From contig CDROCS010001545.1 in NCBI GenBank assembly GCA_977020255.1, positions 62,001 through 126,000 of the forward strand: a stretch of DNA of 64,000 nucleotides. Direction: 5' to 3'. How positions within the stretch are numbered: the stretch's first letter is position 1; each line of letters starts with the position of its first letter. Source of the DNA: Obrimoposthia wandeli (taxonomy: Eukaryota). Position numbers and translations under genes: made by a program. Under the pieces are notes generated by a model. The model did not search any database and was not told where the DNA came from. It worked only from the letters and a program-made list of their open reading frames with translations. This document shows positions 6,271 to 58,988 of this stretch, piece after piece.

Positions 6271-6383
6271 GTTCCTCGAGTGAGAATAGCTCGTCGGACA
6301 CAGCGAATTCACGTAGAATAAGACAGCGAATTGAGAATAAGTTATATAAGAAGAATATATAAGTAAATTGAGATAAGATAATT

Positions 6384-9935: not shown

Positions 9936-10299
9936 CTGTATTCCATAAAATATTTTATTAAAAAATCATAATATTTTCTCAACAGTGCATATTTGGAGGG
10001 AGGGTATTATGTAGGAAATAATTTGCTTTTTTTGGTTGTATCTGGATATAAATATTTATATGGATTTTTTTCTTCTCAACCCTGTTTTTATAATGCTCGT
10101 TGAGCTACTGCGGGCATGAAGGGCACGCGTTGGCTCTTAGATGGCCTCTCAGGTACTTCCTCACTATGTGGGAGCACTATGTGATTTTCAATTTTAAAAG
10201 GGTGTTAAATCGCGTTAAATCATTTTTTTGGGTGTTAGGGGGCGGATGAGATAGAAAAATACACGTATACGTGACTTTATATAATTCATAAAGTCATAT

Positions 10300-10610
10300 A
10301 TATGGATTTATTGGGAGTGGTGTGGCACGGTTGGTAAATTTCAGATGTTAAATGGGAAGCCAGGAATTGCAGGAACTTGCTCGAATTCGCTCTTGACGAA
10401 ATTAAAATATCCATGCGCTTAATTTCCCAATTTCATTTCCTCACCTTGACCATCGTACCATCCACTGCCAGTAAACTACACTTGTGCATTTGAAATGTGT
10501 ATACACGTCTCAGGACATGTATAGATTTTTGTTCACTCCACACACATGCACGAAATTTCACTCCACACACTCATTCACGAAAGTTCACTCCACACACATG
10601 CAATTTGAAT
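10300..10610 (-). mobile_element. Polinton family-B subterminal region (terminus missing)
   Basis: CACTCCACACACATGCACGAAATTT repeats also found in the TIRs at 55310-55350 and 62300-62340. VKSEFEQVPAIPGFPF (minus strand) is homologous to IKSELEHVTVILGLPF at 32500-32550. Confidence 0.7.
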
Positions 10611-13600: not shown

Positions 13601-13650
13601 TTGGCCGAGTCTTCTTCCGCTGAGTCCACCAATCAGCAGTAATTGCGCCT

Positions 13651-14232
13651 ATGCTTCCCTGGCTGAGCGGTGCCATAAAAGCGACACAGATCCCTAGGCC
13701 GAGTCACAACAGAGCCATGTTCACAAATTTCTCCATTGACTCTATACTCAGACCACCTACCGCCACTACCATCACAACTCCCACTACATTCGCTCCCTCC
13801 TCTACAATCAGCCCAGCTCTTTTCTGCTCACGTATCCCACCACCGCCGCCGCCACCACCGCCACCGCCCCCACCGCTCCCACCATCGTCATTCTTTCTTG
13901 GGACTGGCTCCAACTCCACCTCTGTAGGCGGTCGAAAGAGGACCAAGGTCACCGACAACAGGGTCATCAAGTTTATGGCCGCGGCCGGTAGTAGTGGCAA
14001 CAGCAGCAGCTTGTGTCTGGGGCCACCTCCGCACATGGCACCACACCACGCGCATCAGTATTGGGCTAGCTACATCAGCATGCGCTGTCAGCACCGGACC
14101 ATGGCCTCACTGACGACATTGAGACATCATCACCAGCAACAGCAGCAGCAGCAGCAGCAGAACAGCCACCTGCCTTTCGCCATCCGCAATCTGCGCGAGT
14201 TCTATCTCAATCGACACTCTCTCCGCACTCAG
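13651..14232 (+). CDS. pros: Prospero/Prox homeobox protein, exon 1 (eh1-like motif, poly-Pro, poly-Gln)
   Basis: GC-rich ORF ending ...LRTQ at a CAG|GTGCGC donor in phase 0, which joins exon 2 in frame. An ATG at 13718 is an alternative start. Confidence 0.75.
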
Positions 14233-15794
14233 GTGCGCAATGGATAAAAACACAACAACACCACTAAACAAGCAAGTAGTAAATTTCACAACAGACTAAA
14301 ATGGTGTCACTGTGATTTACTAAATTGATAATATTAGTTATAACATTTCAATCTTTCTTAAACAAATATTTGTATTTTATTATTTACGTGTTTTGTGTAA
14401 TAGTACTAGAATTGAAAGGGTGTTTCTCAGTTTTATCTAAAAATACAAAAATAACTAAAATAAATGAACACTGTGTTTATATTAATATGAATTATTATAG
14501 AAACCAACTGGATATATTTCCTGCAATGAAGACTCCGTTTTTTGACGGGGACGTATTTATGCTGTATCTTCTATGAATTTAAATATTCATACTCGTATAT
14601 TGTGACAGAAACATATTGTATCAAGAATCTGTCGCTCTTCACCAAATGTAAATAAACATTCTAGTAATTATTGTGATTTTTAATATTCCTGTATATTTTA
14701 CATAACAGAAATTCGTTAATTAATTTGAAATTATATTCAAATGTTCAGTTATTCTGTTTTGAATCAAATGTTTTTTCATTTTCTTCATTTACAAAAGTTT
14801 TGCTTCAATTTTAGCTTCTATCGATAGCGAATAAGAATACATTTATAAGAAGATATACAGTTCTTATCTTGTTTCTAATATTTATAATTAGTGATACAGT
14901 TGCTTGTAACTACACATTAAAAATCAATGTCGTACCCAATATAAAAATCAAAATATCTGAAGATAGTTTTATTGGTTGTAACTTTGAAATATAGCATTTC
15001 TTTCCTCCGCCCGTAAATTGGTCTTTAGATAACAGAATACAAACAAATTTTCGGAAAATAATAATAAAAAGACAGGAATACTCTTTTCTAGTTTTCTTTC
15101 GTGACTGTACAATGATTTAATTTTCGAAAATGCAATTTCCTCTAAATATTTCAAATACATTTACAATAAGAAACTTTACTGTTAGACTTTAAACTGATTA
15201 TTATTATATTTTAAAAATGGCTTGAACATCAAAGAACAAAAATATTTAATTAATATGATTTTTTGAAAGCGTTACAAAAATTGGAATTCATCACAATTAC
15301 TTTAAGATCCTACTCAATACAAAAATTTATTTCCTCATAAAGGCCCAAATTTTTATATGAACTTGTTCAAAATTAAAATATTTTTATAAATTATACAGAA
15401 TCAAAAAAAGACAGATTTATAAAATAGGACTTTTATAGTCTTCGAGAAAAATATCTTAAATTAGATGAATTACAGCATAAAGTTTATATTTTTATTTAAA
15501 CATTCAATCGTCAAAATAGTGTATTTTTAAAAGAAATTGATTCAAATTAATCAAAACTTTAAAAGTATACCATTTAAGTAAACAGATCTGTTCAGTGTAA
15601 AATAAAATAATGCAAATAATTAAATAAGCTGACATTACACAATATCCAAAAAAGTTGAATTGGATTCAAATAAATTATTTGATATAGTCGGTTTTTAAAC
15701 AATTGAAATTTAATTATTTCACAATTCAGAACTTGATAAACGAAGCTAAGTTTGTTCATGTAAATATTGATAAATTTTTCATCCAAAATTTCAG

Positions 15795-15949
15795 AGTTTC
15801 ACGCTGACATCTCGTCATTTGCGCAAAGCTAAGCTGATGTTTCTTTACGTCCGCTACCCAAACTCCAGTCTCCTGAAAGAGTATTTCCCTGACGTCTCTT
15901 TTGACAAAAACTCGACCGCACAGCTAGTCAAATGGTTTAGCAACTTCCG
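15795..15949 (+). CDS. pros: Prospero homeodomain, exon 2
   Basis: TTTCAG acceptor; [52 protein letters not shown] is the canonical Prospero homeodomain; CG|GTGAGT donor in phase 2. Confidence 0.97.
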
Positions 15950-19550: not shown

Positions 19551-21881
19551 GCACACCTAAATATAAACTATATTATTTTTTTAAACTTCATTATTATTCT
19601 TTTATTAAAAACTTTCTTAAAAAATGTAATTTATTCATAATAATACAAAGTTTAAAAAAGTCATAATGCCTTATATACCTTTTGTTTACCATGATGTTTA
19701 TATTTGCTGTTCCCAGCTGTTCTTCTGTAGCTATTTTCTAGTCACTTTCATACCTTTAAGCCATTTTCAATTTAGATTATTTGTTATACAGATGACAACA
19801 AATAGCTTATTTTTACGAAGAAATGCTTGCAAAGTAGCATTCCAAGATGATGCAGACCTTAATTGGATCTTAATTTAAATATGACTTTACTATAATTAAA
19901 TTGTGATTCGACTTATAAAACATAAATTATATGAAATTTAATTTCATTAATACTCTTAGATTATTCAATAAATTTTGGTTTCGTAAACACACAACTACTT
20001 CATGTTGAAAATATTTCGATTTTCCAACGCTCTTCTTGTTGAATGGATGGATATTTGCTTAGTTTTCTGTCCTTAGCTGATATATAGCATTCTATGGAAT
20101 GACATTTCTTGGAAATTTTGGTTGATTAGCATATAGTGTAGTTGTTCCTAAGTTCCAGGACCGACACTATATACTACTGATTCGATTAGTTGACCTAGAC
20201 CAAAAAGAATAAAATGCAAGTAAACCTATATTTTTATAAAATATTATTAAAAAATATGTTTTAAAAATGATCAAAAGTGATCAACACTATTATATTACAA
20301 AATATAAGGTAGTAATATAATGAAATTTTATCTTCTCAAAATACATAAAGTTGTAAAATTATGAAACAAGTCTATACCTGCTTTATTATTTGACAAAATA
20401 TATATTTAGAAGAATTGACAGAAATAATACATTATCGAGGTTATTCAATCATTATTTGAAAATGTTTCTGATAGAATGAATATTGCAATACGAATTACGA
20501 ATTAAGCTCAAGTAAATTTATTAATAATATAATCATCTTAACACAATAAAATAACTCACTTTAAATGTATTTATTCTTTAAGAATATGGATATTTTGATT
20601 TTTCAAAAACATTTTGAGTTTGTTCTAAATTAATTTACTTCTTTTTTTAATTTAGCGCCTAACGTTCAATATTTTTTTGAGAATTACTTTACATTAAAAA
20701 ATTATTTGACACTATTTACTGTTATTTAGAAATGTAATATATATATAGAATATTTTTTTAGATAGGTCTGAAATTGCCCATCCTGTCGAGTTTATCCTAT
20801 TTTGCCCTAAAAAAATCTTAACTATAAAACCAACATACTCCTGTTCGGAGTTTAAATTATAAAATGTAATTTAAAGTACAAAATAATAAGAAACAAAATC
20901 CTGATTCAGAAAATTTGCTGGATACCGTAATTACATCATTTTTGAATTGACTATTTGGGGTCAAATATTATTTGTACACTTTAAAATGCTTGGTTGTTGG
21001 TCAAGGGGCCATTGTTGGTGCTGAATGATTGGTGGTGTATGTGGTCTGAATTTTGTATAAAAGCCACAGTCTGATGTTATCAGGTCAGTTTTTGTATTTT
21101 GTTGATGTAATGCAAATAAAGAATAAACGACTAATTTAATTACCTATGCGAGTCTTATGTTGGAGATCTGCATCCTAATGTTACTAAAACTGTTATATAT
21201 TACAGATTCCAGCAGCATGGAAATGTCGTGCCTAACAGAGTAAGCAAAGATTTGAATAAGAAAACATATCTTGGTTGTTCCGATGTGAATTAAAATTCTA
21301 CAACTGAAGCAAAGTTATCAATGGATCAAATTAATATCGAGAAAACTTCTTTTTCGCAATACATTTATGTAATTGTCAGTTATTCTGCTATAGAGCGTTT
21401 GAATGATGTCTATTTCCTCGTATTATTTTAGCTCTTCTGATATTCAATCAGGAACCTCCATATACGAGATCTTTCATACCTTTTCAAATTTTCTCTTTAA
21501 TATAAATAATAAGACTATGATGAGGTCAATCTAATAAAGGTACGCTGCGTCAACTGAACATTCGAATAACGCGTTTTGCAACTTGGTGCTTAACATTATC
21601 CTGCTGGTAGATTACATTATCAGTATCGCTCTTTTAAAATAGGAATTAGGTCATTTACCATTGAATCTTTATATCGTTCTCCATGAAGAGTTTAAAAAAT
21701 GTTTTACATTTTTTTTGTAATATAGAATGAAAAATACACATGGAAATAAAACCATTTTACAATTTGCTCGGGTTAAGATGATTTCGAGTTAGTTCTAAGT
21801 TAGTTTTGAGCAATTCGAATATATAAGCGGTAGTTATCTTTTTTAATGATTTTGCCTAGATTTGACATGTGCCATGTGCAG

Positions 21882-31880: not shown

Positions 31881-33520
31881 TTAACATTCTACTTCCTATA
31901 AATGTTTATTATTAAACAAACTTTATAAATCATTTTACCTGTTATAATTTAATCAATAGCAATACAATGAAATTTATAAATATTAATAGGGATATCTTTT
32001 CGGGAGAATCTGAACTTCCAAAGATATTAATTCTAATAATTAATAGTCTTAATCAAAGCTTCTGCGAAATATTTTCACAAAATATACTGAAACTTTATTA
32101 ATTTGAATTTACATTTATTTATCAAGTTATTGAAGTATAATTTAAAAACGTTTGATGTGAAACTAGAGATATTGTGATCTTTCTGAGACTAACCATATAT
32201 TAATAATGAAATCAATCATATTGATCAGTATATTAAACACTCTTTGTCGTGTATACATTATATTACATATTCAAATATATTAAAAAAATTTAATATTTTC
32301 TTTTTGTAACTGATTAAAATATGGATGTTTAATTTTCTAAATCGCTTTGGAATCAAAATCTGATTGATGTTTACAAATCATAGTTTAAAGTTCTATCTTT
32401 TCCAGTTATATAAGTGGGTAGTTGTCTGGTCTAATCTACACTATATTCAATTGCTCGAGCAGTTTACAACCGCCAAATTGAAAGATAGAATTATTGAATT
32501 TATAAAGAGCGAGTTAGAGCATGTGACTGTGATTCTTGGCCTACCATTTAGATTAAAATAGCTTCTGAAATTCTCAACAGAACTTATTTTAAACTTACTG
32601 ACACTGAATAAGTTCTCCCGTTTACCGACTGTACCATACCAATGTCAATAACTCACTATAAAATACTTCATTAAAATTTATTATATTCTAAAGGTAAAGT
32701 CTACATGTTTTTACAAAAACTTAAAGCACAATCGACTCTCCCACTCACCTTCAGAGTGTGAAATGGATTTTGAGCCCATTTGAGAGTCCTAAAACTGTGT
32801 AGCTTCAAGTGCGTTCTGTGAGGTCTAAGGGTTATCACGGCCTGTGGAGTAGTATATAGTGTCGGTACTAAACCAAAGGAACCTAGCCCCTCCCCGAGGT
32901 AGGGGGGGCGGCTAGGTTCCTTTGGTTTAGTCCCAACACTATAGTGGCTTAAAACATTTCTGTATACTGTCATTTTTTCGAAAATGTCGTTAAAATGTCG
33001 AAAGTTTAGACATAATGTCGTTAAAAATTGTTTAAATTGGCTTAAAATGACTCAAAAAATTTCTGGTGTTGTTAGCATGATTTTGAGACTTGACAAATCA
33101 CGCATACTAAACCAATGGTAATAGCCCCCCTCCGGGGAGTGGGAACCTTTTACTGCAAAACCATTTTTGGCGTTGTATGCGTGATTTCAAGACCTATTTT
33201 CACATATGGCGCTAAATATCTTACCGTTTAAAACAAAAAGTGATTTCAAGACCATTTTAAAATATGGCTCTAAATATCTTGCCGTTTAAAACAAGAGTAG
33301 ATTTTGAGTAGATTTTAAGTGGTCAAAGTCTCCCTTACGGAGCCTCCTAAGAGGGAAGCCCTTCATCCGAAGACCGGGCAGCACCTTTGGCAAAGATTAT
33401 ATTTATATTACTTTTGTTTATAGTTAACCTTTAAAGAATAATAAAATCAATTAATTATTTATTCATATGATAAATAATATTAAAAATAAAATCAATAAAT
33501 CATTTATTCATATGATTACA

Positions 33521-34030
33521 TTAAACTCTCTTAAGTCCTTCAGTAATTCTCCAAATATGCTTCTGTCTCCCGAGTCTATCGAATTTGAATCCTTGAATTT
33601 GAATAAATAAAATTCAATATTTGCTTTTAGAAATTTCTTCTTCAGAGTAAGTATATATTCCTTTAAACATATGTTCATCAGCTTTAATAAAAGCACTAAA
33701 GTTTTCAATTTTGATATCTAATTTCCTTCTTCGGAAAATAGCATTGATATTGTTAATATCATTTTGATGGATCCTTGAAATGACATAGTCAAACTTGGAC
33801 TTTGTTAGCATAACAGGGTATTTTAATCCAAAGGTAACAGGCATCTTGAGAAAGTTCATTGTATAACTGAAATAAGGTACAGATTCTTTGAATAGGTCTT
33901 CTGTTTCTCCATTAAAAATATCCTCTAATTCTGTATCATCAGAATCTATCTGTACAACTTTGCTTGTATTTAAAATTTCATTCTTCCTCTTCTTTGTGCT
34001 CTTCAAAATCGGTTTTTGTAAATTGAACAT
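33521..34030 (-). pseudogene. Polinton accessory ORF of unknown function with one premature stop
   Basis: 138-aa ORF (33614-34030) continues in frame past TGA as ILFIQIQGFKFDRLGRQKHIWRITEGLKRV*. The same stop is present in the mirror copy. Confidence 0.55.
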
Positions 34031-34151
34031 GATGAATGAGAGTAAACTGAAATGTTTCGGTAGTTATAGTTGACTACTTGAATCTGATTGGTTGATTCTC
34101 ATTGGATAATTTGAAACTATATATGTTTGTGACATCATCAATTTTTATACC
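34031..34151. promoter_or_regulatory. Putative bidirectional promoter
   Basis: 121 bp between divergent ATGs (34030 and 34152), with two ATTGG (CCAAT) boxes at 34087 and 34101 and a TATATAT at ~34118. Confidence 0.45.
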
Positions 34152-34870
34152 ATGATGAAAATAATCAATATAAATTATAAAGGTAAATTTAAGGGAAGTG
34201 TTAGTCACTTACTTTTTCGATCAAAGAAACCTATACAACAGCGGTTCCCAACCTTTCTGGTGCGGTGACCCCTTGATAACATTTGCCAAGTTGCGGTGAC
34301 CCCAAGAATATGGGTTAATTGACTATTATAATTAGAGAATAGTGATATTACCGCGAGAATACAACACAAGGACATTCGGTATCATAAAACAACTTTTTAA
34401 AAGGCCTTGTTGCCTTAGGAGACTCCAGGAAAATTGTCAGGCGACCCTTATTGGGACAGGTTGGGAACCGCTGCTATACAATATGTTGAAAAGTTAAAGG
34501 ATTATACTATAGTTATATTTCCAACAGGTATTATTATTATTATTATTAATACTACTATTTAGGTTCATCTAGAATTATGGGTTGCAAACAACCAATCAAA
34601 CATGCTCAAAATATAGAAATTGAACGTATTCAATCTCTAAGTATCCTTGTGAATATCAACAAGAAGGTTAATTTGTATAAGATATCTATGAAAATGGGAA
34701 GAAATTGTATGTTTGAACCAGAATTGTTTCCAGCACTCAGAATTTTAAAATATAATCCTCTATGTGTTAATGTGTTTGCTAGTGGAAAAGTGATTATTCA
34801 TAGTATTAAAGATTTTGATTATCATTGTCAAGTCGAGTCTATTGTATTTTTTCTTGAAAGTTTCTTATGA
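34152..34870 (+). pseudogene. Polinton-encoded TBP (TATA-binding protein)-like gene, two exons, disrupted by a MITE
   Basis: Removing the MITE plus one TSD (34239-34481) and a GT-AG intron (34528-34562) gives an open 146-aa frame with two TBP-like repeats: KIININYKG...YTIVIFPTG|SSRIMGCK and IQSLSILVN...FEPELFPAL...VNVFASGKVII. Confidence 0.8.
34239..34473. mobile_element. hAT-type MITE, 235 bp
   Basis: TIR CAGCGGTTCCCAACCT...AGGTTGGGAACCGCTG; 8-bp TSD CTATACAA (34231-34238 and 34474-34481). Confidence 0.95.
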
Positions 34871-35798
34871 ACAAATATATGTTTTTTAATTTTTTAAAAA
34901 TGCTTGTCAATTATATACTTCATTATATAACTGTTGATGATGTTTTAGTTAGACGAAAAGTAGATTATTCTAGAATGAAAGTTTTACAGTCGAAATATAG
35001 ACGTGAAAGTGAAAGATTAAGATCTTTAATTATGAATTTTAAAGGGAAACAATCTGTACATAATTTAGCTAAAACTGGATTTTATAAACATTATGATGAT
35101 TCAACTGATAAAGTAAAATGTATATATTGTCAAGGTGCAATATCCGAATGGGAATGGTATCTTAAACCAATGAAGCAACATATGAAATCTTTTCCTACAT
35201 GTCCATTTCTTTTAAAGTTAAATGTTTCAAATGTACCAATAATTGAAACTATGGTCAAGCAAATTGATTTTGATACATCACCATTGATTGAAAAGTATAT
35301 GTATCAGATATTGTTGTAAAATTACCTGATATATGATATTCAAAAAAGTTTAAGACCCTATAATGATGCTAATGTTATTTAGAAAAATGAATCAGATTGT
35401 ATAATTGAATATCCTTTAACTACGGAAAATTCGACATGTTGATGGATACCAACAACATCGGATAATTGAAAAGGTTTTTCACGAAAGATAGAATAAAATC
35501 TGTTTTAAAATATAAAATGATGCGATATGGAGAATACAATTCACTATTTGAAATGATTTGTGATTTAAATAATTTAGAAATAAACCCTGAAAAACAATAC
35601 ATAAATATATTTTCATACATGTTAAAAGAACCTGAATGTGTAGTATGTTTGAATAATCATATTGAAGTAGTATTTCTACCATGTGGACATGTAAAATCAT
35701 GTATTTCATGTTCCATAAGGTTACATTCATGTCCAATATGTCGACATATAATTGAAAGGAGAGTAAGAAATGTAAAATTTCATGGTATAAACAATTGA
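34867..35798 (+). pseudogene. Inhibitor of apoptosis (BIR, UBA-like, RING), split by stops and frameshifts
   Basis: BIR: ESERLRS...LAKTGFY...DKVKCIYC...EW...PMKQHMKSFPTCPF. UBA-like: FFTKDRIKSVLKYKMMRYGEYNSLFEMICDL. RING: CVVCLNNHIEVVFLPCGHVKSCISCSIRLHSCPICR. Confidence 0.85.
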
Positions 35799-35992
35799 AA
35801 TTTGATGATGATTTATATAAGAATGGAGAAAAACGATAAATTAATTGATAAAATTGTTCGCACCCATGTCTACAGAGATCTCAAATGGAAAAAGGATTTT
35901 GAAAATTTCATTCAGATTAATCGTTCAAATATGATGTATATAACCTTTTCTGTATCAATTTTTAATTCGTTTTTGGTGTATATATTAATAAA

Positions 35993-36649
35993 ATGCCTAT
36001 AAACAATATTATTATTCTTATTATTATGAAACTTAAAAATGATGCAGTATATCAAATAGTAGGACCTAGTGGTAGTGGTAAAACACATTTTGTAACTAAA
36101 TTATTACAAAACAATCAAATGTTTAATAATCGATTTAATAAATTTTATTGGCATTATGGTGATGTTTGCAAATCCCGGTTAACTAAAAGTGAATTATGTA
36201 AACTTAAAAACATTAAATTTATCAATAGTTTTGATCAAAACTAGTTAAAACGGTTAAAACGTAATGATGTTATAGTAATTGATGACTTGTATGATGAAGC
36301 ACATAAAGAGTCAATCTTTAATAATTTATTTACAAAAATAGCAAGACACAACTGTGTTACCGTAATTTTCATTACTCAAAACCTATTTCATCAAGGCAGT
36401 AAACATATAACACGTAAATTAAACGTATATTACTTGGTTTTGTTTAAGAATCCTCGTGATCAAACGGTTATTGACTATGTTTCACGTCAAGCATTTCCTA
36501 ATAACAAGCAATATTTGATAAATTCATTTCAAGATGCAACTAAAAATCCTCATGGTTACTTGTTTCTTGATTTTACTCAATCATATCCTGATGAATTGAG
36601 AATAAGAACCGATATTTTCAACAAATGTATGGTGTATAAACAAAAATAA
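35993..36649 (+). pseudogene. Polinton packaging ATPase (A32/FtsK-like) with one premature TAG
   Basis: Walker A GPSGSGKT, in-frame TAG at 36242-36244, Walker B VIVIDDL, then RH.....IFITQNLF and YLFLDF motifs. Confidence 0.9.
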
Positions 36650-36788
36650 TATTTCTTTAAAATGAGGATTAATTGGTGCACTTTTACCGATAGTTGCAAC
36701 TTTAATCAGTCCCCTACTTGCTAGAGCTGTTGCCTAAAGTATATGAGAAACAACTTACCTAATTTTGATTTAAAAATAAATTGTTGTA

Positions 36789-37789
36789 ATGGAAACGATA
36801 TGGTACGATCCCGAAGACCCAGTTGGATACAGCGGCGTTGGAACTCTATCAACAAACACTAAGTCGAGCCAAATGAAAACTCAAACATGGTTGAGCAATC
36901 AACTGGCGTACAGTCTGAACAAACCGATGCGAAAAAGGTTCCCGACACGATCGTACAAGACTAGTGGCCTTAATAATTTATGGCAAATGGATTTGATGAA
37001 AATGATACCTTATGCAAGTATAAATAGCGGTTACAAATATATATTAACATGTATTGATGTATTTACTACATTTGGGCGTGCTGAACCAGTAAAATCAAAA
37101 TCCAGTAAAGATATAGATGCTGCCATCAAAAATATGATTGATGTTGTACCCGATAATGTACAAACATATGCTGGAAAAGAGTTTTATAACAAACATGTTA
37201 AAGCACCTTTTGATAAATTAGGAGTAAATCATTATTATGTGTTTTCACACTTTAAAGCGGCCTTGGTTGGACGATTTAATAGAACATTAAGAGATAAATT
37301 AAAGAAACATTTTGTTGTAATTGGATCAAAGAAATGGGTAAAGGTACTACCTAAACTGTTAATTTCATATAATCACTCACCACATCGCGGTTTAGGTGGT
37401 AAGAAACCTATTGATATTTCATTTGATGATTGGTTTTCTCGTAATAAAAATCAATAATAAAGAAACCCAAATACAAAGTTGGAGATTTTGTTTGCATATC
37501 ACGACTAAGTACAACACCTTTTATTAAAAATTTCGATAATAATTGGAGTGATGAAGTATTTGAAATAGCAAAAATCAATTTACATGCAAACCCTGTAATG
37601 TATAACATCATATATGAGTATAAAAGTCCGATATTTTATGAGCAAGAATTACAAGTTATTGATAAACCAAAAGTATATAGGATACAAGAATTCATTAAAT
37701 CTAAAGGTCGAGGTAAGAATAAACAATATTACGTAAAATGGCATGGATATAAAACACCAACATGGATAAATGCGAACCAGATAGAGTAA
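36789..37789 (+). pseudogene. Polinton retroviral-like integrase with C-terminal chromodomain, inactive
   Basis: WQMDL and YILTCIDVF are present. QTD has become QTY and VERFNRTL has become VGRFNRTL. Frameshift near 37455, then KPKYKVGDFV..NWSDEVF and chromodomain YRIQEFIKSKGRGKNKQYYVKWHGY...W. Confidence 0.92.
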
Positions 37790-39160
37790 AAAAATTCTAT
37801 ATTGTATTACCATCTAATAGTTGTCCAAACACTCAACATAATAATACCGCCTCGAAATTTATTGTTGATTGGGAAAATTCGATAGAACTTCAAGGTGAAT
37901 GGGAAGTTGCATTGACAGAATTTACTTATAGTAATACACCCGTTATTTTACACAAGGGTGATGAAATAAATTATAAGGAAACGGTTAGTGCTAAGAAAAC
38001 CGATACTGTCTCATTAAATGTTGAATTTAAAGATGTGGAAATTCATAATGATAAGCATAATATAAAAAAAAAATTTAAAAATTTCGATAATAATTGGAGT
38101 GATGAAGTATTTGAAATAGCAAAAATCAATTTACATGCAAACCCTGTAATGTATAACATCATATATGAGTATAAAAGTCCGATATTTTATGAGCAAGAAT
38201 TACAAGTTATTGATAAACCAAAAGTATATAGGATACAAGAATTCATTAAATCTAAAGGTCGAGGTAAGAATAAACAATATTACGTAAAATGGCATGGATA
38301 TAAAACACCAACATGGATAAAAGCGAACCAGATAGAGTAAAAAAATTCTATATTGTATTACCATCTAATAGTTGTCCAAACACTCAACATAATAATACCG
38401 CCTCGAAATTTATTGTTGATTGGGAAAATTCGATAGAACTTCAAGGTGAATGGGAAGTTGCATTGACAGAATTTACTTATAGTAATACACCCGTTATTTT
38501 ACACAAGGGTGATGAAATAAATTATAAGGAAACGGTTAGTGCTAAGAAAACCGATACTGTCTCATTACATGTTGAATTTAAAGATGTGGAAATTCATAAT
38601 GATAAGCATAATATAAAAAAAAAATTTAAAAATTTCGATAATAATTGGAGTGATGAAGTATTTGAAATAGCAAAAATCAATTTACATGCAAACCCTGTAA
38701 TGTATAACATCATATATGAGTATAAAAGTCCGATATTTTATGAGCAAGAATTACAAGTTATTGATAAACCAAAAGTATATAGGATACAAGAATTCATTAA
38801 ATCTAAAGGTCGAGGTAAGAATAAACAATATTACGTAAAATGGCATGGATATAAAACACCAACATGGATAAAAGCGAACCAGATAGAGTAAAAAAATTCT
38901 ATATTGTATTACCATCTAATAGTTGTCCAAACACTCAACATAATAATACCGCCTCGAAATTTATTGTTGATTGGGAAAATTCGATAGAACTTCAAGGTGA
39001 ATGGGAAGTTGCATTGACAGAATTTACTTATAGTAATACACCCGTTATTTTACACAAGGGTGATGAAATAAATTATAAGGAAACGGTTAGTGCTAAGAAA
39101 ACCGATACTGTCTCATTAAATGTTGAATTTAAAGATGTGGAAATTCATAATGATAAGCAT
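37526..39160 (+). repeat. 551-bp tandem triplication spanning the integrase 3' end and the minor capsid 5' end
   Basis: Units start at 37526, 38077 and 38628. ORFs 37762, 38313 and 38864 are spaced by exactly 551 bp. Confidence 0.97.
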
Positions 39161-40013
39161 AAACCTGTTAAATTTAATATAAAGAAAATTTCAAAAGTAG
39201 AAATAAAATCATCAAAACGCATTGCTAATCTTTATTGTGAGTTTCGTACATATGGCAAAGATAAAATGGAAAATGTACTTTTTATAAAATCTTTAAATAA
39301 ACAGAAATTCTATATAAAACTATCGAAAAAAATCAAAAAATCAATTGGGTTTCCTAAATAATCAATTAAACCATGAAAATTACTTAGCATATGATGATAA
39401 TGGTATTTTAACTGCGCAAAAATCCATACATCATAAATATGTATCAACAAAATTCGAATATTATCAATTAGGAGATAAAAATATCAATTCAAAAATCGTG
39501 TTTGACAACGATTTCAATAGTACAGATTTGAATGCTCTAGTTAAATACGTTATATCTAAATGTAATCATATTTTTAGCATGTTTTATATTGAAAAAGATA
39601 AATTCATTAAATTCAAGTTAAAATCAAATATTTCAAGTATAATGTTTAATAATCGTATGGCATTTGTACTGGGTCTTAATAAAACAGAATTTACAGGTGA
39701 CGGTAAAGGTATTCCTCAATTAATATGTGAGTTTGATCACATGTACCTGTATACCAATTTGATAGAGTCTATAAATGTTGGTGGTGTAAAAATACCATTG
39801 TTAAAATCAATTTGGTTAGATAAAAACAAAAAATATGGTGATATCGCAAAAATTACAATAATTAGACTAATGTATGTTCCTGTAATATCAACATCTATTT
39901 CAAATATTGAAGTAAATATTCGCAATGATAGTGGAATACCGATAAACGTTGCTCATAACGCAAAAACTAGTTTAACACTACATTTCCGAAAAGTTATGTA
40001 TAAACAAAATTAA
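38864..40013 (+). pseudogene. Polinton minor capsid (penton-like) protein, frameshifted near 39350
   Basis: N-terminal FYIVLPSNS...NTASKF...LQGEWEVALTE and C-terminal MYLYTNLIE...VGGVKIPLL...MYVPV...IEVNIRNDSG...LTLHFR are typical of Polinton minor capsids. Confidence 0.8.
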
Positions 40014-40031
40014 ATCATGTAATCGTTAATA

Positions 40032-40415
40032 ATGTCTCTATTTGATGTGTATAGTACAACCCAAACAGGTGGTGAACTACCTTACTTTGTTGGAAAACAA
40101 TATGGTTAAGGTTGGTTGGAAGTTTTGGGACGAATTGCGTTTCCTATACTATCCTGTTTAGGACGAATTGGTGCAAAAACACTTACAAATGTAGTAATGA
40201 ACGATAAACCAATTTTGAGTGAACTAAAATCAAATGCAATATGTGAAGTACCAGGTTTGTTGCCTGAAGCAACAAAAGCTGCTACTCAACTAATGACTGT
40301 AATAAAGAAAAGTCGAAAACGACCAGCAGAAATTCCTGTTGAAATGAAAGAAGAAGTACAGAAAGGTAGAGGTAGTATAAACAAACGTAGAAAAATAGGA
40401 ACAATATTTGAGTAA
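40032..40415 (+). pseudogene. Small basic putative core protein with QxGG/QxGxG motifs; premature TAA at 40107
   Basis: MSLFDVYSTTQTGGELPYFVGKQYG*GWLEVLGRIAFP...; basic C-terminus; lies between the minor and major capsid genes. Confidence 0.65.
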
Positions 40416-40418
40416 GAA

Positions 40419-40649
40419 ATGGCATGTGCAAAATCTGAACTGTGTTTATTTGATCGTCCACTAACTCAAATTGCTATAGAAAATGGATGTTTTGAGAATA
40501 TTTTCCCGGTTAATAATTATAATAATAATTTAACAATTATTACCGGTAGTAATATTAATACAATCGAGTTTAATATCCATTCTAGTGAAACAGACACTTC
40601 AGAATTTGATCATTGTAATGTCGGTTCAATTTCCCTTAGTAGAAATTAA
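40419..40649 (+). pseudogene. Major capsid protein, internally deleted and truncated
   Basis: CAKSELCLF...TQIAIE...IEFNI is the MCP N-terminus. It is joined directly to TDTSEFDHCNVGSISLSRN, which matches TDVTQFDNLNVGSVTLSRN in the MCP C-terminal ORF at 61684-62193. Confidence 0.8.
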
Positions 40650-41176
40650 AGAGTTGAAAATTGAAATTGAGAAGTTAGAACTTCTCATCTTAAAACGTCA
40701 ACTACAAAATATAAAGTTGTAAATTTTTTTTGTTGTTGTTATCTATTTATTCACTTGTATATATTAATACAACTTTTGTGTTTAATCAATTTATTTATTA
40801 TATAGGATTATTTTGATTAGTTGACCAATTATATTGAAGTTAGGTTTTTATATAATCGAAACACTTTAGTTTTAAAAATCATTTCATCATTATGACTCTA
40901 AGTACTTTAGACATGTTATGCACTCTTCGGATTAACCTTAAAGAAGACATTTTTAAACTATATACATCTCAATATTTTTCATTATATTGTGCTCCAGAAC
41001 TTTTTAAATTAAGGAGAATGGAACTTTACCAATATCATCAACGTAAGATTTTTATTTTTTTAAAAATATTTAATGTACATTTAATAGTTATGGGAGATAT
41101 TCAATACTACTATCATCATGAGATGCCGATTTGTAATCATATGAATAGATGATTTATTGATTTTATTTTAATTTTA

Positions 41177-44100
41177 TTTGTTGATAGAGTTCCAACGCCG
41201 CTGTATCCAACTGGGTCTTCGGGATCGTACCATATCGTTTCCATTACAACAATTTATTTTTAAATCAAAATTAGGTAAGTTGTTTCTCATATACTTTAGG
41301 CAACAGCTCTAGCAAGTAGGGGACTGATTAAAGTTGCAACTATCGGTAAAAGTGCACCAATTAATCCTCATTTTAAAGAAATATTATTTTTGTTTATACA
41401 CCATACATTTGTTGAAAATATCGGTTCTTATTCTCAATTCATCAGGATATGATTGAGTAAAATCAAGAAACAAGTAACCATGAGGATTTTTAGTTGCATC
41501 TTGAAATGAATTTATCAAATATTGCTTGTTATTAGGAAATGCTTGACGTGAAACATAGTCAATAACCGTTTGATCACGAGGATTCTTAAACAAAACCAAG
41601 TAATATACGTTTAATTTACGTGTTATATGTTTACTGCCTTGATGAAATAGGTTTTGAGTAATGAAAATTACGGTAACACAGTTGTGTCTTGCTATTTTTG
41701 TAAATAAATTATTAAAGATTGACTCTTTATGTGCTTCATCATACAAGTCATCAATTACTATAACATCATTACGTTTTAACCGTTTTAACTAGTTTTGATC
41801 AAAACTATTGATAAATTTAATGTTTTTAAGTTTACATAATTCACTTTTAGTTAACCGGGATTTGCAAACATCACCATAATGCCAATAAAATTTATTAAAT
41901 CGATTATTAAACATTTGATTGTTTTGTAATAATTTAGTTACAAAATGTGTTTTACCACTACCACTAGGTCCTACTATTTGATATACTGCATCATTTTTAA
42001 GTTTCATAATAATAAGAATAATAATATTGTTTATAGGCATTTTATTAATATATACACCAAAAACGAATTAAAAATTGATACAGAAAAGGTTATATACATC
42101 ATATTTGAACGATTAATCTGAATGAAATTTTCAAAATCCTTTTTCCATTTGAGATCTCTGTAGACATGGGTGCGAACAATTTTATCAATTAATTTATCGT
42201 TTTTCTCCATTCTTATATAAATCATCATCAAATTTCAATTGTTTATACCATGAAATTTTACATTTCTTACTCTCCTTTCAATTATATGTCGACATATTGG
42301 ACATGAATGTAACCTTATGGAACATGAAATACATGATTTTACATGTCCACATGGTAGAAATACTACTTCAATATGATTATTCAAACATACTACACATTCA
42401 GGTTCTTTTAACATGTATGAAAATATATTTATGTATTGTTTTTCAGGGTTTATTTCTAAATTATTTAAATCACAAATCATTTCAAATAGTGAATTGTATT
42501 CTCCATATCGCATCATTTTATATTTTAAAACAGATTTTATTCTATCTTTCGTGAAAAACCTTTTCAATTATCCGATGTTGTTGGTATCCATCAACATGTC
42601 GAATTTTTCCGTAGTTAAAGGATATTCAATTATACAATCTGATTCATTTTTCTAAATAACATTAGCATCATTATAGGGTCTTAAACTTTTTGAATATCAT
42701 ATATCAGGTAATTTTACAACAATATCTGATACATATACTTTTCCAATCAATGGTGATGTATCAAAATCAATTTGCTTGACCATAGTTTCAATTATTGGTA
42801 CATTTGAAACATTTAACTTTAAAAGAAATGGACATGTAGGAAAAGATTTCATATGTTGCTTCATTGGTTTAAGATACCATTCCCATTCGGATATTGCACC
42901 TTGACAATATATACATTTTACTTTATCAGTTGAATCATCATAATGTTTATAAAATCCAGTTTTAGCTAAATTATGTACAGATTGTTTCCCTTTAAAATTC
43001 ATAATTAAAGATCTTAATCTTTCACTTTCACGTCTATATTTCGACTGTAAAACTTTCATTCTAGAATAATCTACTTTTCGTCTAACTAAAACATCATCAA
43101 CAGTTATATAATGAAGTATATAATTGACAAGCATTTTTAAAAAATTAAAAAACATATATTTGTTCATAAGAAACTTTCAAGAAAAAATACAATAGACTCG
43201 ACTTGACAATGATAATCAAAATCTTTAATACTATGAATAATCACTTTTCCACTAGCAAACACATTAACACATAGAGGATTATATTTTAAAATTCTGAGTG
43301 CTGGAAACAATTCTGGTTCAAACATACAATTTCTTCCCATTTTCATAGATATCTTATACAAATTAACCTTCTTGTTGATATTCACAAGGATACTTAGAGA
43401 TTGAATACGTTCAATTTCTATATTTTGAGCATGTTTGATTGGTTGTTTGCAACCCATAATTCTAGATGAACCTAAATAGTAGTATTAATAATAATAATAA
43501 TAATAATACCTGTTGGAAATATAACTATAGTATAATCCTTTAACTTTTCAACATATTGTATAGCAGCGGTTCCCAACCTGTCCCAATAAGGGTCGCCTGA
43601 CAATTTTCCTGGAGTCTCCTAAGGCAACAAGGCCTTTTAAAAAGTTGTTTTATGATACCGAATGTCCTTGTGTTGTATTCTCGCGGTAATATCACTATTC
43701 TCTAATTATAATAGTCAATTAACCCATATTCTTGGGGTCACCGCAACTTGGCAAATGTTATCAAGGGGTCACCGCACCAGAAAGGTTGGGAACCGCTGTT
43801 GTATAGGTTTCTTTGATCGAAAAAGTAAGTGACTAACACTTCCCTTAAATTTACCTTTATAATTTATATTGATTATTTTCATCATGGTATAAAAATTGAT
43901 GATGTCACAAACATATATAGTTTCAAATTATCCAATGAGAATCAACCAATCAGATTCAAGTAGTCAACTATAACTACCGAAACATTTCAGTTTACTCTCA
44001 TTCATCATGTTCAATTTACAAAAACCGATTTTGAAGAGCACAAAGAAGAGGAAGAATGAAATTTTAAATACAAGCAAAGTTGTACAGATAGATTCTGATG

Positions 44101-45323
44101 ATACAGAATTAGAGGATATTTTTAATGGAGAAACAGAAGACCTATTCAAAGAATCTGTACCTTATTTCAGTTATACAATGAACTTTCTCAAGATGCCTGT
44201 TACCTTTGGATTAAAATACCCTGTTATGCTAACAAAGTCCAAGTTTGACTATGTCATCTCAAGGATCCATCAAAATGATATTAACAATATCAATGCTATT
44301 TTCCGAAGAAGGAAATTAGATATCAAAATTGAAAACTTTAGTGCTTTTATTAAAGCTGATGAACATATGTTTAAAGGAATATATACTTACTCTGAAGAAG
44401 AAATTTCTAAAAGCAAATATTGAATTTTATTTATTCAAATTCAAGGATTCAAATTCGATAGACTCGGGAGACAGAAGCATATTTGGAGAATTACTGAAGG
44501 ACTTAAGAGAGTTTAATGTAATCATATGAATAAATGATTTATTGATTTTATTTTTAATATTATTTATCATATGAATAAATAATTAATTGATTTTATTATT
44601 CTTTAAAGGTTAACTATAAACAAAAGTAATATAAATATAATCTTTGCCAAAGGTGCTGCCCGGTCTTCGGATGAAGTGCTTCCCTCTTAGGAGGCTCCGT
44701 AAGGGAGACTTTGGCCACTTAAAATCTACTTAAAATCTACTTAAAAAATCTACTCAAAATCTACTCTTGTTTAAACGGCAATATATTTAGAGCCATATTT
44801 GAAAATGGTCTTGAAATCACCTTTTGTTTTAAGCGGTAAGATATTTAGCGTCATATGTGAAAATAGGTCTTGAAATCACGCATACAACGCCAAAAATGGT
44901 TTTGCAGTAAAAGGTTCCCACTCCCCGGAGGGGGGCTATTACCATTGGTTTAGTATGCATGATTTTCAGGCCAAATGTAGGCCAACTCTCAAAATCCTGC
45001 AAACAACACCAATATAGTTTTGCAGTAAAAGGTACCCCCCGGGGGACCTATTACCATTGGTTTAGTATGCGTGATTTGTCAAGTCTCAAAATCCTGCATA
45101 CAACACCAGACATGAGTTGTATAATTTTTTGTTGTTGAGTCATTTTAAGCCAATTCAAACAATTTTTAACGACATTCTGTCTAAAATTTAGACATTTTAA
45201 CGACATTTTGTCGAAAAAATGACAGTATACAAATTTTTTTAAAGCCACTATAGTGTTGGGACTAAACCAAAGGAACCTAGCCCCCCCAGTTCCTTTGGTT
45301 TAGTACTGACACTATATACTACT
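41177..45323 (-). repeat. Right arm of the ~4-kb inverted repeat, with mirror copies of the ATPase (41384-42040), IAP (42235-43167), TBP-like gene (43164-43885) and ORF 44007-44516
   Basis: Near-identical to the left arm internally; differences seen are one silent SNP, homopolymer indels and one extra ATT unit. The outer ~0.6 kb is more diverged and has an extra subterminal repeat. Confidence 0.97.
43564..43798. mobile_element. Mirror copy of the hAT MITE in the right arm
   Basis: Same TIRs; TSD TTGTATAG (reverse complement of CTATACAA) at the homologous position. Confidence 0.95.
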
Positions 45324-48300
45324 CTGTGGTGGAGGTGGCGAGTGGATTAGACGAGACATATCCATCTACTCATATCAGCTGCATGTTTAAAACGGGAAAC
45401 ATTGTTCGTATTTTATAATATTTGATTTTTAAAATGATTATTATTTTAGACAGAATATTTAGACAGAATATCTATAAATCATAACCGAAAAATCAAGTAT
45501 TTATAATTTTCAATAATAATAATTTTAAAATAACTTATAATAAATCATAAAATCCAACAAAATAACTTTTTTGAACAATGTATACAAATTTTGTTTATAA
45601 AATACAGCCAGTTTTAATGTATGCATTTTGCACACATTTTATGGATGGAATCTATGCAGCACTACTGCCAGTGTTAAATAAATTCTTCTAGCGTCCTCGA
45701 GACAATTTTTACTGAAATTACAAACGATTTTGAAGACACACATTTTTCGTCTTAATTAAAATAGACAAATTTATTCTAAAATATTTTTTTTTCAAGCACA
45801 TAGCTTATACATAAATGAGTTGAAATATACGTATTTGGAAATATTACACGTTTAACTTTTTAGCTACTTAAAAAAAGAATTTTAAAATAAGTAACAATAC
45901 AAAAATTTTATTAAGGGACATTTAAAAAATATTTTAAATAGCAAATTTCATAAAATTTGACAGTTTTAATAAATATAATTAAATAATATTTAGTATACAG
46001 TAATCATTATTAGTTAAATTAGGCTACTTATAACTTTAAGTAAATTATTAAACAATATTTAAATGTTGAAATGTTACTGTAGAACTTGTTAGAAAAAAAA
46101 TTTTTTTGAAAAAATCAATATAAAATTTACTAATAAGATTTTTGTAGCATTGTAAAATGATAATGTCGTTTATTTACAATATTCGAAATCAGATATCAGA
46201 TCAAATTTGTTAGCGCCAGTGTCGTAGTGTTGGAAAATAGTCGACAGCACCATGCCGGTGTTACGTAATAATAAAAGGAAAATTAAAAAGTTAATTTTTT
46301 TAACAAATTCATATTTCATTGCCCATTCTGTCAATATGAATCCATATTAAAACGTAGTAGAACATTAAATTTGTTTAAGGACGTTAAAATAGGTTTTATT
46401 AAAAAAATATAAACCGATATCAAGTCAATAAAATTTATTACAAGCTCTTTTCGTAGTTTGAATGAGGTATTCAACCAAATAAGATCATTCCATGTTGACA
46501 AACATAATTACGCTCCAAACTCAGAAAATGAATGTTGACATAAGTAGTACTTTCACATACCATATATGATTTTGAATTACGATAGATGATTATTTTAAAA
46601 TATGCAAGTATGGTAAAGTAGTTTTGTTCATGTATTTAATATTATTTAACAACTTATTGTCAATAATTTAAATAGGAACAATTGTTTAAACTAATCATTG
46701 AAAATAAGAAGAGAAACAAATAATACATAAAAATTACAAACAATAAAAGAAGAACATCAATTAAAATATGATTACTGCAATTTTTATTCAATCTTTTTAA
46801 ATCTAATTCTTTTAATTTCATACTCAGTTTTTGAGATCACGTGGTTATGACAAAACGAACAGTTACCGAAATTAGTTGAAGTCTTTAAAGGTATCAGCCA
46901 CCATTGGGGTATTTTACGACCCTGCCTGTTGATGTGCACGTTATAGTAAAACTTACAGAGAAGATGGCTAGCGCATCCTGCAACTTATACTGAGCACTAT
47001 TTGCGATGTTATGGCTGAACAATGAGCCTCTTTGATTTAGTTGTAAAGGCACTTCAATTGAAAAATTCTGAAAAATTCTGTCACATAATATGCAGAAGAC
47101 ATAAATAGATCAAAGCTTGGTGTATCCAGAATGTTTTCTGTTGACAACACAGATATAAAAACGGCAAAAACATGTAATGTGACATAACCAATAGTGACTG
47201 TAAGTAAATAACTACCATCTAAAGTGATTAATATTTCAAACTATTCCACAATTTTGTTCTCAATGTAAATATTTCGTTTTTTAACTAGTATTAAATTGAA
47301 CTATTTATAAGTAGCAATTTACTATAGACTCACAATACTAGAAAACATTGTTGTCAGAGTGAGGATACAGAAACCCTTGGAAAATATTGTGTTTAGGTTC
47401 ATCCTAAATCGACATTAAAGAAAGAATATATTGCAGAAAAGAGAGCCTTAAGTCAAGGTCTGATCGACACCGTTTGCAGCAGTATCAATTTGAGATTTGG
47501 GATAAAGATTAAGTAGAAAATTAATTAAGAGATACAATCGAAAAAGTATTAAAATCAACAATGTTTAGACTCACTTTACATATTTCTTAGAACAAATAGC
47601 AAAACTAGTTTAATAATCCACATTTTAAAAACAAATTAACTGGATAAGCCTTCCTGAATAATTTTTCTTGTCATATGAGGAAAACATTGAGTCAATGTAA
47701 TTCTTTTACTTTTTTTCTTAATATCATCAAAACTATCTAGTTAACATAAACACTTTCGTCTGCGGGTTAATGAATAGGTATTTGTTTATAACTCAAATAT
47801 GTTGATAAGCGTCATTTGTAATAATTTGCAACCTAACTTTATAGCTTCTTAAGATTCCAATTTTATAAATTTATAAATTATAATTTTCCAAAATCGATTG
47901 CTTACTATCGTGATCGTTTCCAGTAAACAAATTTGAATTGAGATTGTTATAATAAAATGATTGCCAATATTGTTTGATCTGTTCTTCTATTAGTTATTAG
48001 GTACAATCTGTGAAAAAACATGAAATACATCTATTGTTGCAAATGTGCGCAAGGTATTTCAGCATTCAGTTTAGAAAGATTCAAATATCTTCTTAAGATG
48101 TTAAACTGAATAAAGGTTCTTTAAACATTGGCATTTCATAATCTGTGTATGTTACATCATTTTTCATATTAAACGCAGTTTTTATCTCTGATGTTACAAA
48201 AATGTTACAAAGTACTATGATAACTTAATTAAATGAGGAAAAAATATTAAAAAAACAAAAAGTTTTATTGGTTATCTAAATACATTTTAGCAATGGATGT

Positions 48301-53269: not shown

Positions 53270-55076
53270 AATCATACCCAAGTCTAGTGAAAAATTCATG
53301 GCTCTCAAAATAGAATTATCAGCTGGAACATTGAAATTTTTAGATTCGTATGCTTTTACAACAACTAGTTTTGAAATATTGGTTAGTTATCTTCCAAGTT
53401 CACCATATACGTCAAGATATTTTAGAACTGATTTGATATCTAATAAAGGTGCTTTTCCTTATGAATATATTTCTTGTGAATCTAAGTTGTATGAAGATAG
53501 ATTGCCTCCAAAATGTGAATTTCCTAATAGGGTTACAGATGATAAATATAATTTAGCTCACACAATGTGGACAAAACTATGTTGCACTAATATTAAAGAC
53601 TATATGATGGAATATATGCGTCTTGATGTATACTTACTTTGTGATGTATTTGAGTCTTTTAGACAAAATGTTAGATCTGATGATAATCTTGAGGCTTTTA
53701 ATTTCTATAGTATTCCAGGTTTTAGTTGGTGTGGTTCAGTAAAATCATTAACAAACAGGGTAGAATTGATGCATGATCCGGAAATGTATAATCTCTCTGA
53801 AGCAGGTATTAGAGGAGGTATGACTTTTGTCAATAAACATTATTGTATGACCGATGATAGTACATAACTTCTCTATATAAATATAAATAACTTATACGGC
53901 TGGGCTTTAAGCCAACATTTACCAAATATGTAATTTAAGGGGATGTATGCTAATTTGATGATATTTTGAATTTAGTTGGAAGTAATAAGGATTTGAGTAA
54001 AAACGTATGGGGTTTTCTGGTTGAAGTAGTTTTACATATTCTAGATCGTATATATAATAAGGTTGATAATTTACCTATTGAACAACATAAGATGTGTCCA
54101 CCAAATTAAAAACTCCTATATTGATTTTAACACATAATGAAATAAAGCCTTTCATAATACATTTCCGTTTACTACAATTCTATTATTTCTTTATGCCGAA
54201 ATCATTAAAAATTCATAGGGTTATTCGGTTAAGACAAGCATCCGTTTTAAAATAATATATAGATTTTAATTCAAACAAGAGGGCAACTAGTGTCAATAAG
54301 TTTGAATATGAATTTTATAAGTTGAAAAATAATTCCGTTTACGATAAAACGGTTGAGAATCTTAAGATGCGGCTTGATATTAGATTATGTAATAATAATA
54401 AACGGTTTGAAAAATTAGTTTTGAGTGCTTGGTTTAAATGTCATACTCAAATAAATGATGATTTAAACTTAGTTTTTATGCAGAAACAGGAGATATGTTT
54501 AGACCAGCCTGAGTATATTGGTCAAGCCGTACTTGATCTCTCTAAATGACGTATGTATCAATTACAGTATATTTAGCTTGAACGGTATAGGAAAATTTTT
54601 AATTGTAGTATTCGAATTGTAGCTATGGATACAGATTCTTATTTCCTTGAGTGTGTGAATATTAATAAGGATAAATTACTTAAAGAAATGATTAAGGATG
54701 GGTATTTAGATAAGAGTAATTATCCTAAAACACATATCTTGTATTCGGAAAATTTTAAACTGTAATTGGAAAATATAAAGATAAAAGTGAGAGTACTGTA
54801 TAAAAGGAGTGGGTTTTCTTAAAACCAAAATGTTATTAACTTCAAAATAAATTAATGGCTAAGGGTATTTCTTTGAAACAAACTAAATTAAGACATCAAG
54901 ACTACCTCAATTGTTATGAAAATGAAGAAATTATTAGTGTTAACCAGTCACGTATAGCATCGGTTTACCATCAGCTTCACATAACCTTTACCTCTAAAGT
55001 TGCTTTAAAATGTTTTGATTATAAAAGGAGATGGGTTAATAAGAATAAAGCTTATGGACATTTCAGTTTAACTTAA
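53270..55076 (+). pseudogene. Protein-primed family-B DNA polymerase (pPolB) of a Polinton, decayed
   Basis: FLDSY, KGAFPYEY, DVYLLCDVFESFR, GIRGG, NNLYGWALSQ.LP, NNSVYDKTVEN, YIGQAVLDLSK, MDTDS, KPKCY, AKGI and DYKR...AYGHF occur in order, with stops. Confidence 0.93.
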
Positions 55077-58636: not shown

Positions 58637-58907
58637 CAGTCTCAGTGGAGCGACAATGGTTGGTTGGAGACCATATAGGAATCTGATTTCGTCGAGTTAA
58701 CGTACGACAGCTAGATGGATTCCGTCAATGAAGAGGACTTTCAACCAGCTACAGTTGAATTGGCTTCATTAGGTTTTTTTTTATTATTATTTTTCTGACT
58801 ATTTTTTAGAATTGTAATTATATATTTTTTATTTTTATTTTTATTCAGGAAATACCTTGATACAACCATCATCCGCTACGACATCTATGCCTTCTCCATC
58901 GCGAGTG

Positions 58908-58966
58908 AGTAGTATATAGTGTCGGTACTAAACCAAATGATCAATATGGTTTTACAGTAAAAGGTA
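58908..58966 (+). mobile_element. Collapsed family-A Polinton terminus
   Basis: AGTAGTATATAGTGTCGGTACTAAACCAAA is identical to 32848-32877 and is followed by TGGTTTTACAGTAAAAGGT, an inverted family-A subterminal motif. Confidence 0.85.
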
Positions 58967-58988
58967 AAATAAATATGTTATAGTTAAG

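Follow-up and report, generated by a model that had tools for sequence, protein, structure and literature searches.

The 64,000-nt stretch of DNA analysed here (the window) contains the remains of a gene for a minimal TATA-binding protein (mini-TBP) within a Polinton/Maverick-derived element. This gene belongs to a widespread Polinton lineage, in which the packaging ATPase and presumed capsid genes are commonly preceded by the TATA-like word YATAAAC, and the TBP genes themselves by a canonical TATA box. We propose, with a probability of roughly 0.55, that working mini-TBPs are element-specific promoter factors that read YATAAAC and act through TFIIB and Pol II as a late-gene switch like that of herpesviruses. 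The finding touches on whether animal Polintons make virions and on how their genes are switched on.

A defective Polinton with a broken TBP gene

The element that houses the gene (Table 1) shows the defining features of Polintons/Mavericks, namely terminal inverted repeats, AGTAGT ends and a 6-bp target duplication seen as identical flanks at 32842-32847 and 45324-45329. Its right end is the left 4 kb in reverse, and as the inner arms are more alike (about 100% identity) than the outer repeats (82-97%), the inner duplication seems to postdate the insertion. Integrase and packaging ATPase genes, which are expected of a Polinton, are both present, each with one or more stops. No protein-primed DNA polymerase B was found among the ORFs of the element; this gene is present in a sister copy of the window family and in relatives. 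Protease matches were recovered in other families, and none at E 1e-4 in the sister copy of the window family. Given the missing polymerase and the mere stub of a presumed major capsid gene, the element is best viewed as a defective Polinton derivative. Both capsid labels are presumptive, being based on ORF size and gene order, and neither presumed capsid gene gave a Pfam match in the relatives searched. The broken IAP gene corresponds to one 299-aa ORF in another family. Sequencing contigs of one sample (4 runs) cover the element evenly; their joints at the repeat were filtered, and they are silent on splicing.

Table 1. Features of the Polinton-derived element and its mini-TBP gene, in window positions
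Feature	Position	Strand	Basis or remark
Defective palindromic Polinton/Maverick derivative, AGTAGT ends	32848..45323	.	Termini and identical flanks
Divergently oriented element ORF	33614..34030	-	No Pfam match; relatives in 5/82 loci
Canonical TATA-like box, putative promoter	34118..34125	+	34 nt 5' of TBP start
Mini-TBP exon 1, 5' piece	34152..34238	+	Like exon 1 of MITE-free copies and N-termini of intronless relatives
MITE inside exon 1, 235 bp	34239..34473	.	16-bp inverted ends, 8-bp target duplication
Mini-TBP exon 1, 3' piece, ending within conserved F-x-x-G motif	34482..34527	+	
Likely spliceosomal intron, phase 1, GT-AG, (ATT/ACT)n microsatellite, 35 nt	34528..34562	+	Comparison
Mini-TBP exon 2, last N-lobe strand and whole C-lobe	34563..34870	+	Pfam PF00352, PDB TBP
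Broken IAP gene, BIR and RING pieces	34867..35798	+	Pfam BIR E 7e-13, RING E 2e-13
YATAAAC word	35998..36004	+	28 nt 5' of ATPase start
Packaging-type ATPase, internal stop	36026..36649	+	Walker A motif; strong tblastn matches in relatives
Integrase (rve), chromodomain-like tail, internal stop	36789..37789	+	Pfam rve E 1.4e-5, under curated cut-off
Presumed minor capsid gene, broken, 551-nt triplication at start	37762..40013	+	Gene order
Presumed major capsid gene, stub	40419..40649	+	Resembles N-termini of 403-415-aa ORFs in relatives
Mirror copy of broken mini-TBP	43164..43885	-	Intron 43472-43509, MITE 43564-43798

The initial annotation of this DNA had described a TBP homolog in a Polinton, split by a MITE and by a 35-nt GT-AG segment (38 nt in the mirror arm) that together interrupt a gene of 146 codons. 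All these pieces are present, and the lengths of the three coding pieces add up to 146 codons. Exon 2 recovers the Pfam TBP family PF00352 (E 6.3e-9; 36 bits against a cut-off of 22.9) and TBP sequences from the PDB (E 1.7e-9), which confirms the homology, and whole natural relatives score 64-65 bits against the same Pfam family. The MITE has perfect 16-bp inverted ends and 8-bp direct repeats at 34231-34238 and 34474-34481, and belongs to a dispersed family with two copies in the window and 38 others at 88-97% identity (40 scored of 1201 candidates); the label hAT goes back to the 8-bp duplication. As the mirror arm is about 99% identical to the left arm and contains the same MITE, it is a young duplicate and no second observation, and we rejected it as independent support. 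Besides the MITE in exon 1, the window copy carries changes of its own at two positions that hardly vary across the family, and hence is dead.

In the genome 150 TBP copies were scored out of 28,699 candidates, with identities of 88-100%. We inspected 68 of the 148 copies outside the window, chosen by exon-2 similarity and hence favouring intact ones, and could score 65. None of these 65 carries the MITE, and in 29 of them the start codon is present and both exons are open. GT and AG are both retained in 55/65, and none is intronless. The exon-1 variants of the window family comprise 32 non-synonymous against 1 synonymous singletons, pointing to no purifying selection, as expected for decaying copies; likewise, dN/dS among three close D-family copies (0.44-0.66) is uninformative because these copies decay.

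Several other sequences were noticed along the way. A 551-nt unit, running from the tail of the integrase into the beginning of the presumed minor capsid gene, occurs three times in near-identical form at 37524-38925. Palindromic Polinton derivatives recur in the genome, with further cases in C5330 (L245-L246) and C625 (L123, L124), and possibly reflect conversion between terminal repeats or an assembly effect. Outside the main element the window contains additional sequences resembling Polinton ends, together with a fragment of polymerase B (20142-20184, 53298-53867 and 58902-58969), as well as an ORF with poly-Pro and poly-Gln runs (13651-14247), which is probably a host transcription-factor exon and has a short motif that we take to resemble the eh1 repressor peptide. 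GroEL genes without introns are numerous in the assembly and sit in gene surroundings of bacterial type (L176-L194); the assembly appears to include bacterial contigs.

Fold and conserved residues of the mini-TBP

The predicted model of a natural 147-residue relative (P0002; pLDDT 96) matches TBP over 147 aligned residues (Z 14.3, rmsd 2.2), as against Z 6.4 for the best non-TBP structure. Canonical TBPs have both helices in each lobe; in this model the C-lobe is complete, and the N-lobe retains its strands with no helix of 4 or more residues. The gene thus does encode a minimal TBP fold and belongs to a Polinton lineage, in line with its first description as a minimal, divergent TBP, though the accompanying claim of both pseudo-repeats was overstated, since only the C-lobe is complete and the N-terminal repeat is reduced to strands. 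To our knowledge it is the smallest TBP core known. A longer clade of the same lineage, with proteins of 167-182 aa (L094 9992-10501 and related loci), keeps both N-lobe helices in a 169-residue model. Hence, the N-lobe was likely reduced within Polintons, and the models suggest that the longer clade is likely an intermediate in this reduction.

A comparison of functionally important positions in 77 relatives showed that: 1) The acidic positions of the C-lobe stirrup are conserved at the sequence level, with E/D in 77/77 and E in 77/77. According to the accessible part of one report (PMC7221094), two acidic C-lobe residues contact TFIIB, and the N-lobe binds TFIIA, TAF1, Brf1, Mot1 and NC2. 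2) Three of the four DNA-intercalating phenylalanines, which the initial annotation had singled out for checking, are kept (76, 77 and 77 of 77), and the fourth is probably lost. Internal symmetry places K, P or S at its site and MAFFT a variable column (Y or F in 26/77), so that by either alignment the conserved fourth phenylalanine of canonical TBPs is missing. 3) Mutation of I194, V203 and L205 lets yeast TBP read TGTA, as stated in the available portion of PMC1636458. The equivalent positions, mapped by fixed offsets from the conserved phenylalanines, are R in 77/77, C in 77/77 and N in 76/77 relatives. Judged from these alignments, the DNA-reading face is conserved across the relatives yet different from that of TBP.

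The loss of the regulatory helices, and probably of one phenylalanine, would also fit a protein that merely bends DNA during replication, integration or packaging and has nothing to do with YATAAAC; this word also occurs close to both element ends (33422 and 44615). We hold this to be improbable, since such a role does not account for the retention in 77/77 relatives of both acidic residues by which, in the available text of PMC7221094, TBP contacts TFIIB.

A widespread Polinton lineage

Our searches recovered 90 relatives, most of them about 150 residues long, with 62 clusters at 50% identity having E-values up to 1e-30. The neighbours in 82 loci around them include ATPase (28), integrase (18) and polymerase (6) genes, counts to which many of the contigs, being 1-3 kb long, are too short to contribute. 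Scans of viral contigs with ATPase or capsid alignments turned up no loci for a larger TBP-less control. TBP-like genes on viral contigs were limited to two distant loci and one cellular-type TBP. Five loci were picked from genome contigs by their ATPase alone, and one of these also has the TBP gene. Measured dN/dS, another of the checks suggested at the outset, supports the gene with values of 0.11-0.17 in three metagenome pairs.

The suggested phylogeny with host TBPs was built from the C-terminal part (63 rows by 119 columns, rooted at the midpoint, without archaeal TBP) and came with a long-branch warning; in it 48 element sequences are separated from 15 cellular-type rows, including a host paralogue, with an SH-aLRT of 99. 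Subject to that warning, the placement of the element clade apart from this host paralogue argues against a recent capture from this host. The tree of 63 rows, which omits archaeal TBP, names no donor of the gene. The host itself has at least five TBP-family genes (L113-L122); among them are two that stand back to back on one contig, and two divergent paralogues that lack introns. Related elements also encode a ubiquitin-conjugating enzyme, a KilA-N protein and a phospholipase A2-like protein (Pfam; L057 222-719; L094 7142-8002 and 9086-9487); an Atlas search with a neighbouring ORF in L057 returned leads under 0.9 only.

A recurrent likely intron

Sequence comparison makes it very probable that the segment at 34528-34562 is a truly spliced intron: it has GT-AG ends at a point where intronless homologues run on. 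In six families of this genome (that of the window and five others) a GT-AG insert of 32-40 nt, 36-40 nt in the five others, interrupts the same codon in the same phase, each time with a different sequence, and one metagenome contig has an insert at this codon and phase too. Intronless genes are found in one family of this genome (L125-L130) and in 71 of the 72 scorable metagenome relatives (8 of 80 being unscored). Between the intron-bearing families, dS in exon 2 has reached or approached saturation, as against a dN of 0.28-0.47, implying that the protein was made.

It is improbable that the segment is instead a disabling microsatellite in a family that never made the protein. This reading draws on its being a pure simple repeat of 17-857 nt across the copies, with no clear branch point and with AG-GT repeated at both segment ends, but it is at odds with the shared codon and phase of the differing inserts in six families, with the divergence under constraint of the exons of those families, and with the preservation of both GT and AG in 55/65 decaying copies. 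Host introns are likewise short: the four that we measured are 42, 47, 48 and 85 nt long, so that short introns seem normal in this host. Across copies of the window family the segment is mostly 29-41 nt; twelve copies have introns of 29 nt, which may be too short, and four have shorter ones, all below the host introns measured. The preponderance of lengths that are 2 mod 3 (60/65 copies) is not evidence of selection, because the repeat unit is 3 nt.

Placed on the tree, the intron requires two changes, with which a single origin remains compatible. Among 150 listed clusters 13 start at profile position 49, just past the intron site (e.g. P0024, P0036, P0316 and P0319), which is at the sequence level a weak hint of the intron in other genomes. 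Intact vertebrate Mavericks are described as lacking introns in the available text of Barreat and Katzourakis 2021 (PMC8097293), and the recurrent intron qualifies the view of intact Maverick genes as intronless. In dinoflagellate Polinton-like elements, introns derived from introner transposons are known (PMC12166617, accessible part).

A promoter word before packaging and presumed capsid genes

We counted YATAAAC 10-80 nt before the start codon in loci from metagenomes, after dereplication at 80% protein identity. The word precedes ATPase genes in 19/20 cases, presumed major capsid genes in 8/10 and presumed minor capsid genes in 8/15; it is also found before two small ORF classes (9/9 and 5/6), a 154-aa ORF (12/17) and phospholipase-like genes (4/6). 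Integrase genes have it in 5/13 cases, at a greater distance, a PZ-like gene in 1/7, polymerase genes in 0/3, and TBP genes in these metagenome loci in 0/51. The background is 3.2%, and antisense counts are 0 in all classes save 2 at TBP genes. Conversely, the canonical box TATAWAWR precedes 21/51 TBP genes, against a background of 4.6%, and also 6/20 ATPase genes. In hold-out loci, outside the set where the word was first noticed, YATAAAC was present in 7/7, and ATAAAC was the top 6-mer of a de novo search. The window element shows the same division, with YATAAAC before the ATPase and presumed capsid genes (further sites at 35786, 36635, 39999 and 40376) and a canonical box before the TBP gene.

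TATAAA and CATAAA resemble variants of the poly(A) signal, and ATAAACA resembles a forkhead site; the element genes are co-oriented and tightly packed, and some YATAAAC sites lie within the coding end of the upstream gene. That YATAAAC serves the upstream gene as a polyadenylation signal, or is a forkhead site, and marks no special promoter class is nevertheless very unlikely, as no strand bias is seen for AATAAACA (25 sense, 26 antisense) or for GTAAACA (35, 33), in contrast to TATAAACA (132 sense, 18 antisense) and TATAAACG (24, 3), and the distance from the word to the next ATG clusters at 32-48 nt. These strand-bias counts led us to disfavour both readings.

The relation between word and gene was also examined in elements lacking a TBP match. 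Four distant elements picked by ATPase without a TBP match have no strand-biased word, three of the four being GC-rich (51-56%) and three partial, and one distant ATPase-picked element with TBP has YATAAAC 4 times sense and 0 antisense. Among capsid-picked elements in this genome 3/10 have no TBP match, two of them bounded by inverted repeats; of the seven matches in the others, one is at a stretch edge and may belong to a neighbour. All three TBP-less elements keep YATAAAC before the ATPase and major capsid genes, and over their core they share 81-83% identity with a TBP-bearing family of the same genome, which fits recent loss or supply in trans, but a word read by the host would fit as well. 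The TBP-less family (L151-L152, about 2835-15823; L161-L164) has a dual-specificity phosphatase-like ORF, recognised by eye, upstream of the ATPase.

Hence we considered whether YATAAAC is a core promoter read by the host TBP or a paralogue, with the mini-TBP acting as a decoy by tying up TFIIB or by blocking TATA boxes of the host. Besides the TBP-less family that retains the word, this could draw on the several TBP-family genes of the host, some divergent, and on the fact that YATAAAC departs from a canonical TATA box mainly at position 7. We regard it as rather unlikely, because the word is excluded from the TBP genes, which use canonical TATA, because a decoy does not need fixed, changed base-reading residues, and because distant elements without a TBP match lack the word as well. 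For the element-encoded transcription switch envisaged by the initial annotation, the YATAAAC counts provide sequence evidence of an element-specific promoter class, and the TBP-less family that keeps the word speaks against it; the effect on the host pre-initiation complex, the late timing and the virus-like life cycle that were also suggested are conjectural.

Proposed mechanism

For the reading that we favour, in which mini-TBP reads YATAAAC, the following course of events may be envisaged. The host TBP would transcribe the mini-TBP gene from its canonical TATA box, and in several families of this genome the host spliceosome would remove the short phase-1 intron. The protein, as predicted for the natural relative, would form a ten-stranded saddle whose N-lobe has no helices, and since these are the surface used by TFIIA, TAF1, Mot1 and NC2, it would escape these factors. 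The fixed new residues on its DNA-reading face, whose conservation is observed, would shift specificity to YATAAAC, and through the two acidic residues of its stirrup it would recruit host TFIIB, and likely Pol II, to the packaging and capsid genes. Elements that are dead or lack the gene could be served in trans. More tentatively, we think it possible, if short of an even chance, that an animal-type Polinton lineage in this manner runs a two-stage programme, having reinvented the herpesvirus late switch independently, with the intron tying it to the host spliceosome and with its factor used in trans by families that lack the TBP gene.

Because factor and word would form a dedicated, matching pair, a single small protein and a site of 7 bp suffice to test the proposal. 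The mini-TBP is also a natural deletion and specificity mutant that shows which parts of TBP are dispensable, and it could yield an orthogonal TBP-promoter pair.

Comparison with known systems

The original premise that TBP lies outside the canonical Polinton gene set needs softening, since the legend of Fig. 5 in Starrett et al. 2021 (PMC8502044) labels a TBP for related MELD viruses; the gene is therefore less unexpected than had been stated. The accessible main text of that paper has no discussion of TBP and its supplement text no TBP, and the available parts of PMC11161782, 10.64898/2026.06.19.733378, PMC10748475 and PMC8097293 contain no mention of TBP or TATA that we found. Our search of openly accessible literature found no characterisation of a Polinton TBP or of the YATAAAC word. 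To Polintons/Mavericks and MELD viruses as portrayed in the available text of PMC8502044 and PMC8097293, the present analysis adds a mini-TBP found across the lineage, along with a promoter word and an intron that recurs.

With cellular and archaeal TBPs (PF00352; PDB 7egb_P, 1ytb_A and 1mp9) the mini-TBP shares the two-lobed saddle, the acidic C-lobe stirrup and three of the four phenylalanines, but it is only about 26% identical, some 30 residues shorter, without N-lobe helices and with changed DNA-reading residues, and it falls in a separate clade from the 15 cellular-type rows (SH-aLRT 99). With the TBPs of giant viruses (Nucleocytoviricota) it has in common a viral TBP fold (Foldseek E 7e-9) and, as described in the accessible part of PMC7221094, the loss of N-lobe regulatory signatures. 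However, by the same partial text giant-virus TBPs combine diverged adapter signatures with a co-evolving viral TFIIB, whereas the acidic signature of the mini-TBP is intact; no TFIIB-like gene was seen among the ORFs of three related contigs, part of which were searched with Pfam.

A parallel in function would be the herpesvirus TBP mimics (EBV BcRF1, KSHV ORF24 and HCMV UL87), which, in the available parts of the reports, likewise join a virus-encoded TBP-like factor to a variant TATA word at virion genes, reading TATT at late promoters (PMC4893493; also PMC7498053). As portrayed there, these proteins are large, contact the CTD of Pol II and work in a six-protein complex, in contrast to the bare core of about 145 residues with its TFIIB stirrup and YATAAAC word. 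The Pol II-binding N-terminal domain found in that viral pre-initiation complex is absent from this core. The mini-TBP is thus no member of the herpesvirus system, which serves as a working analogy for a Polinton factor that may pair a TBP fold with a promoter word of its own.
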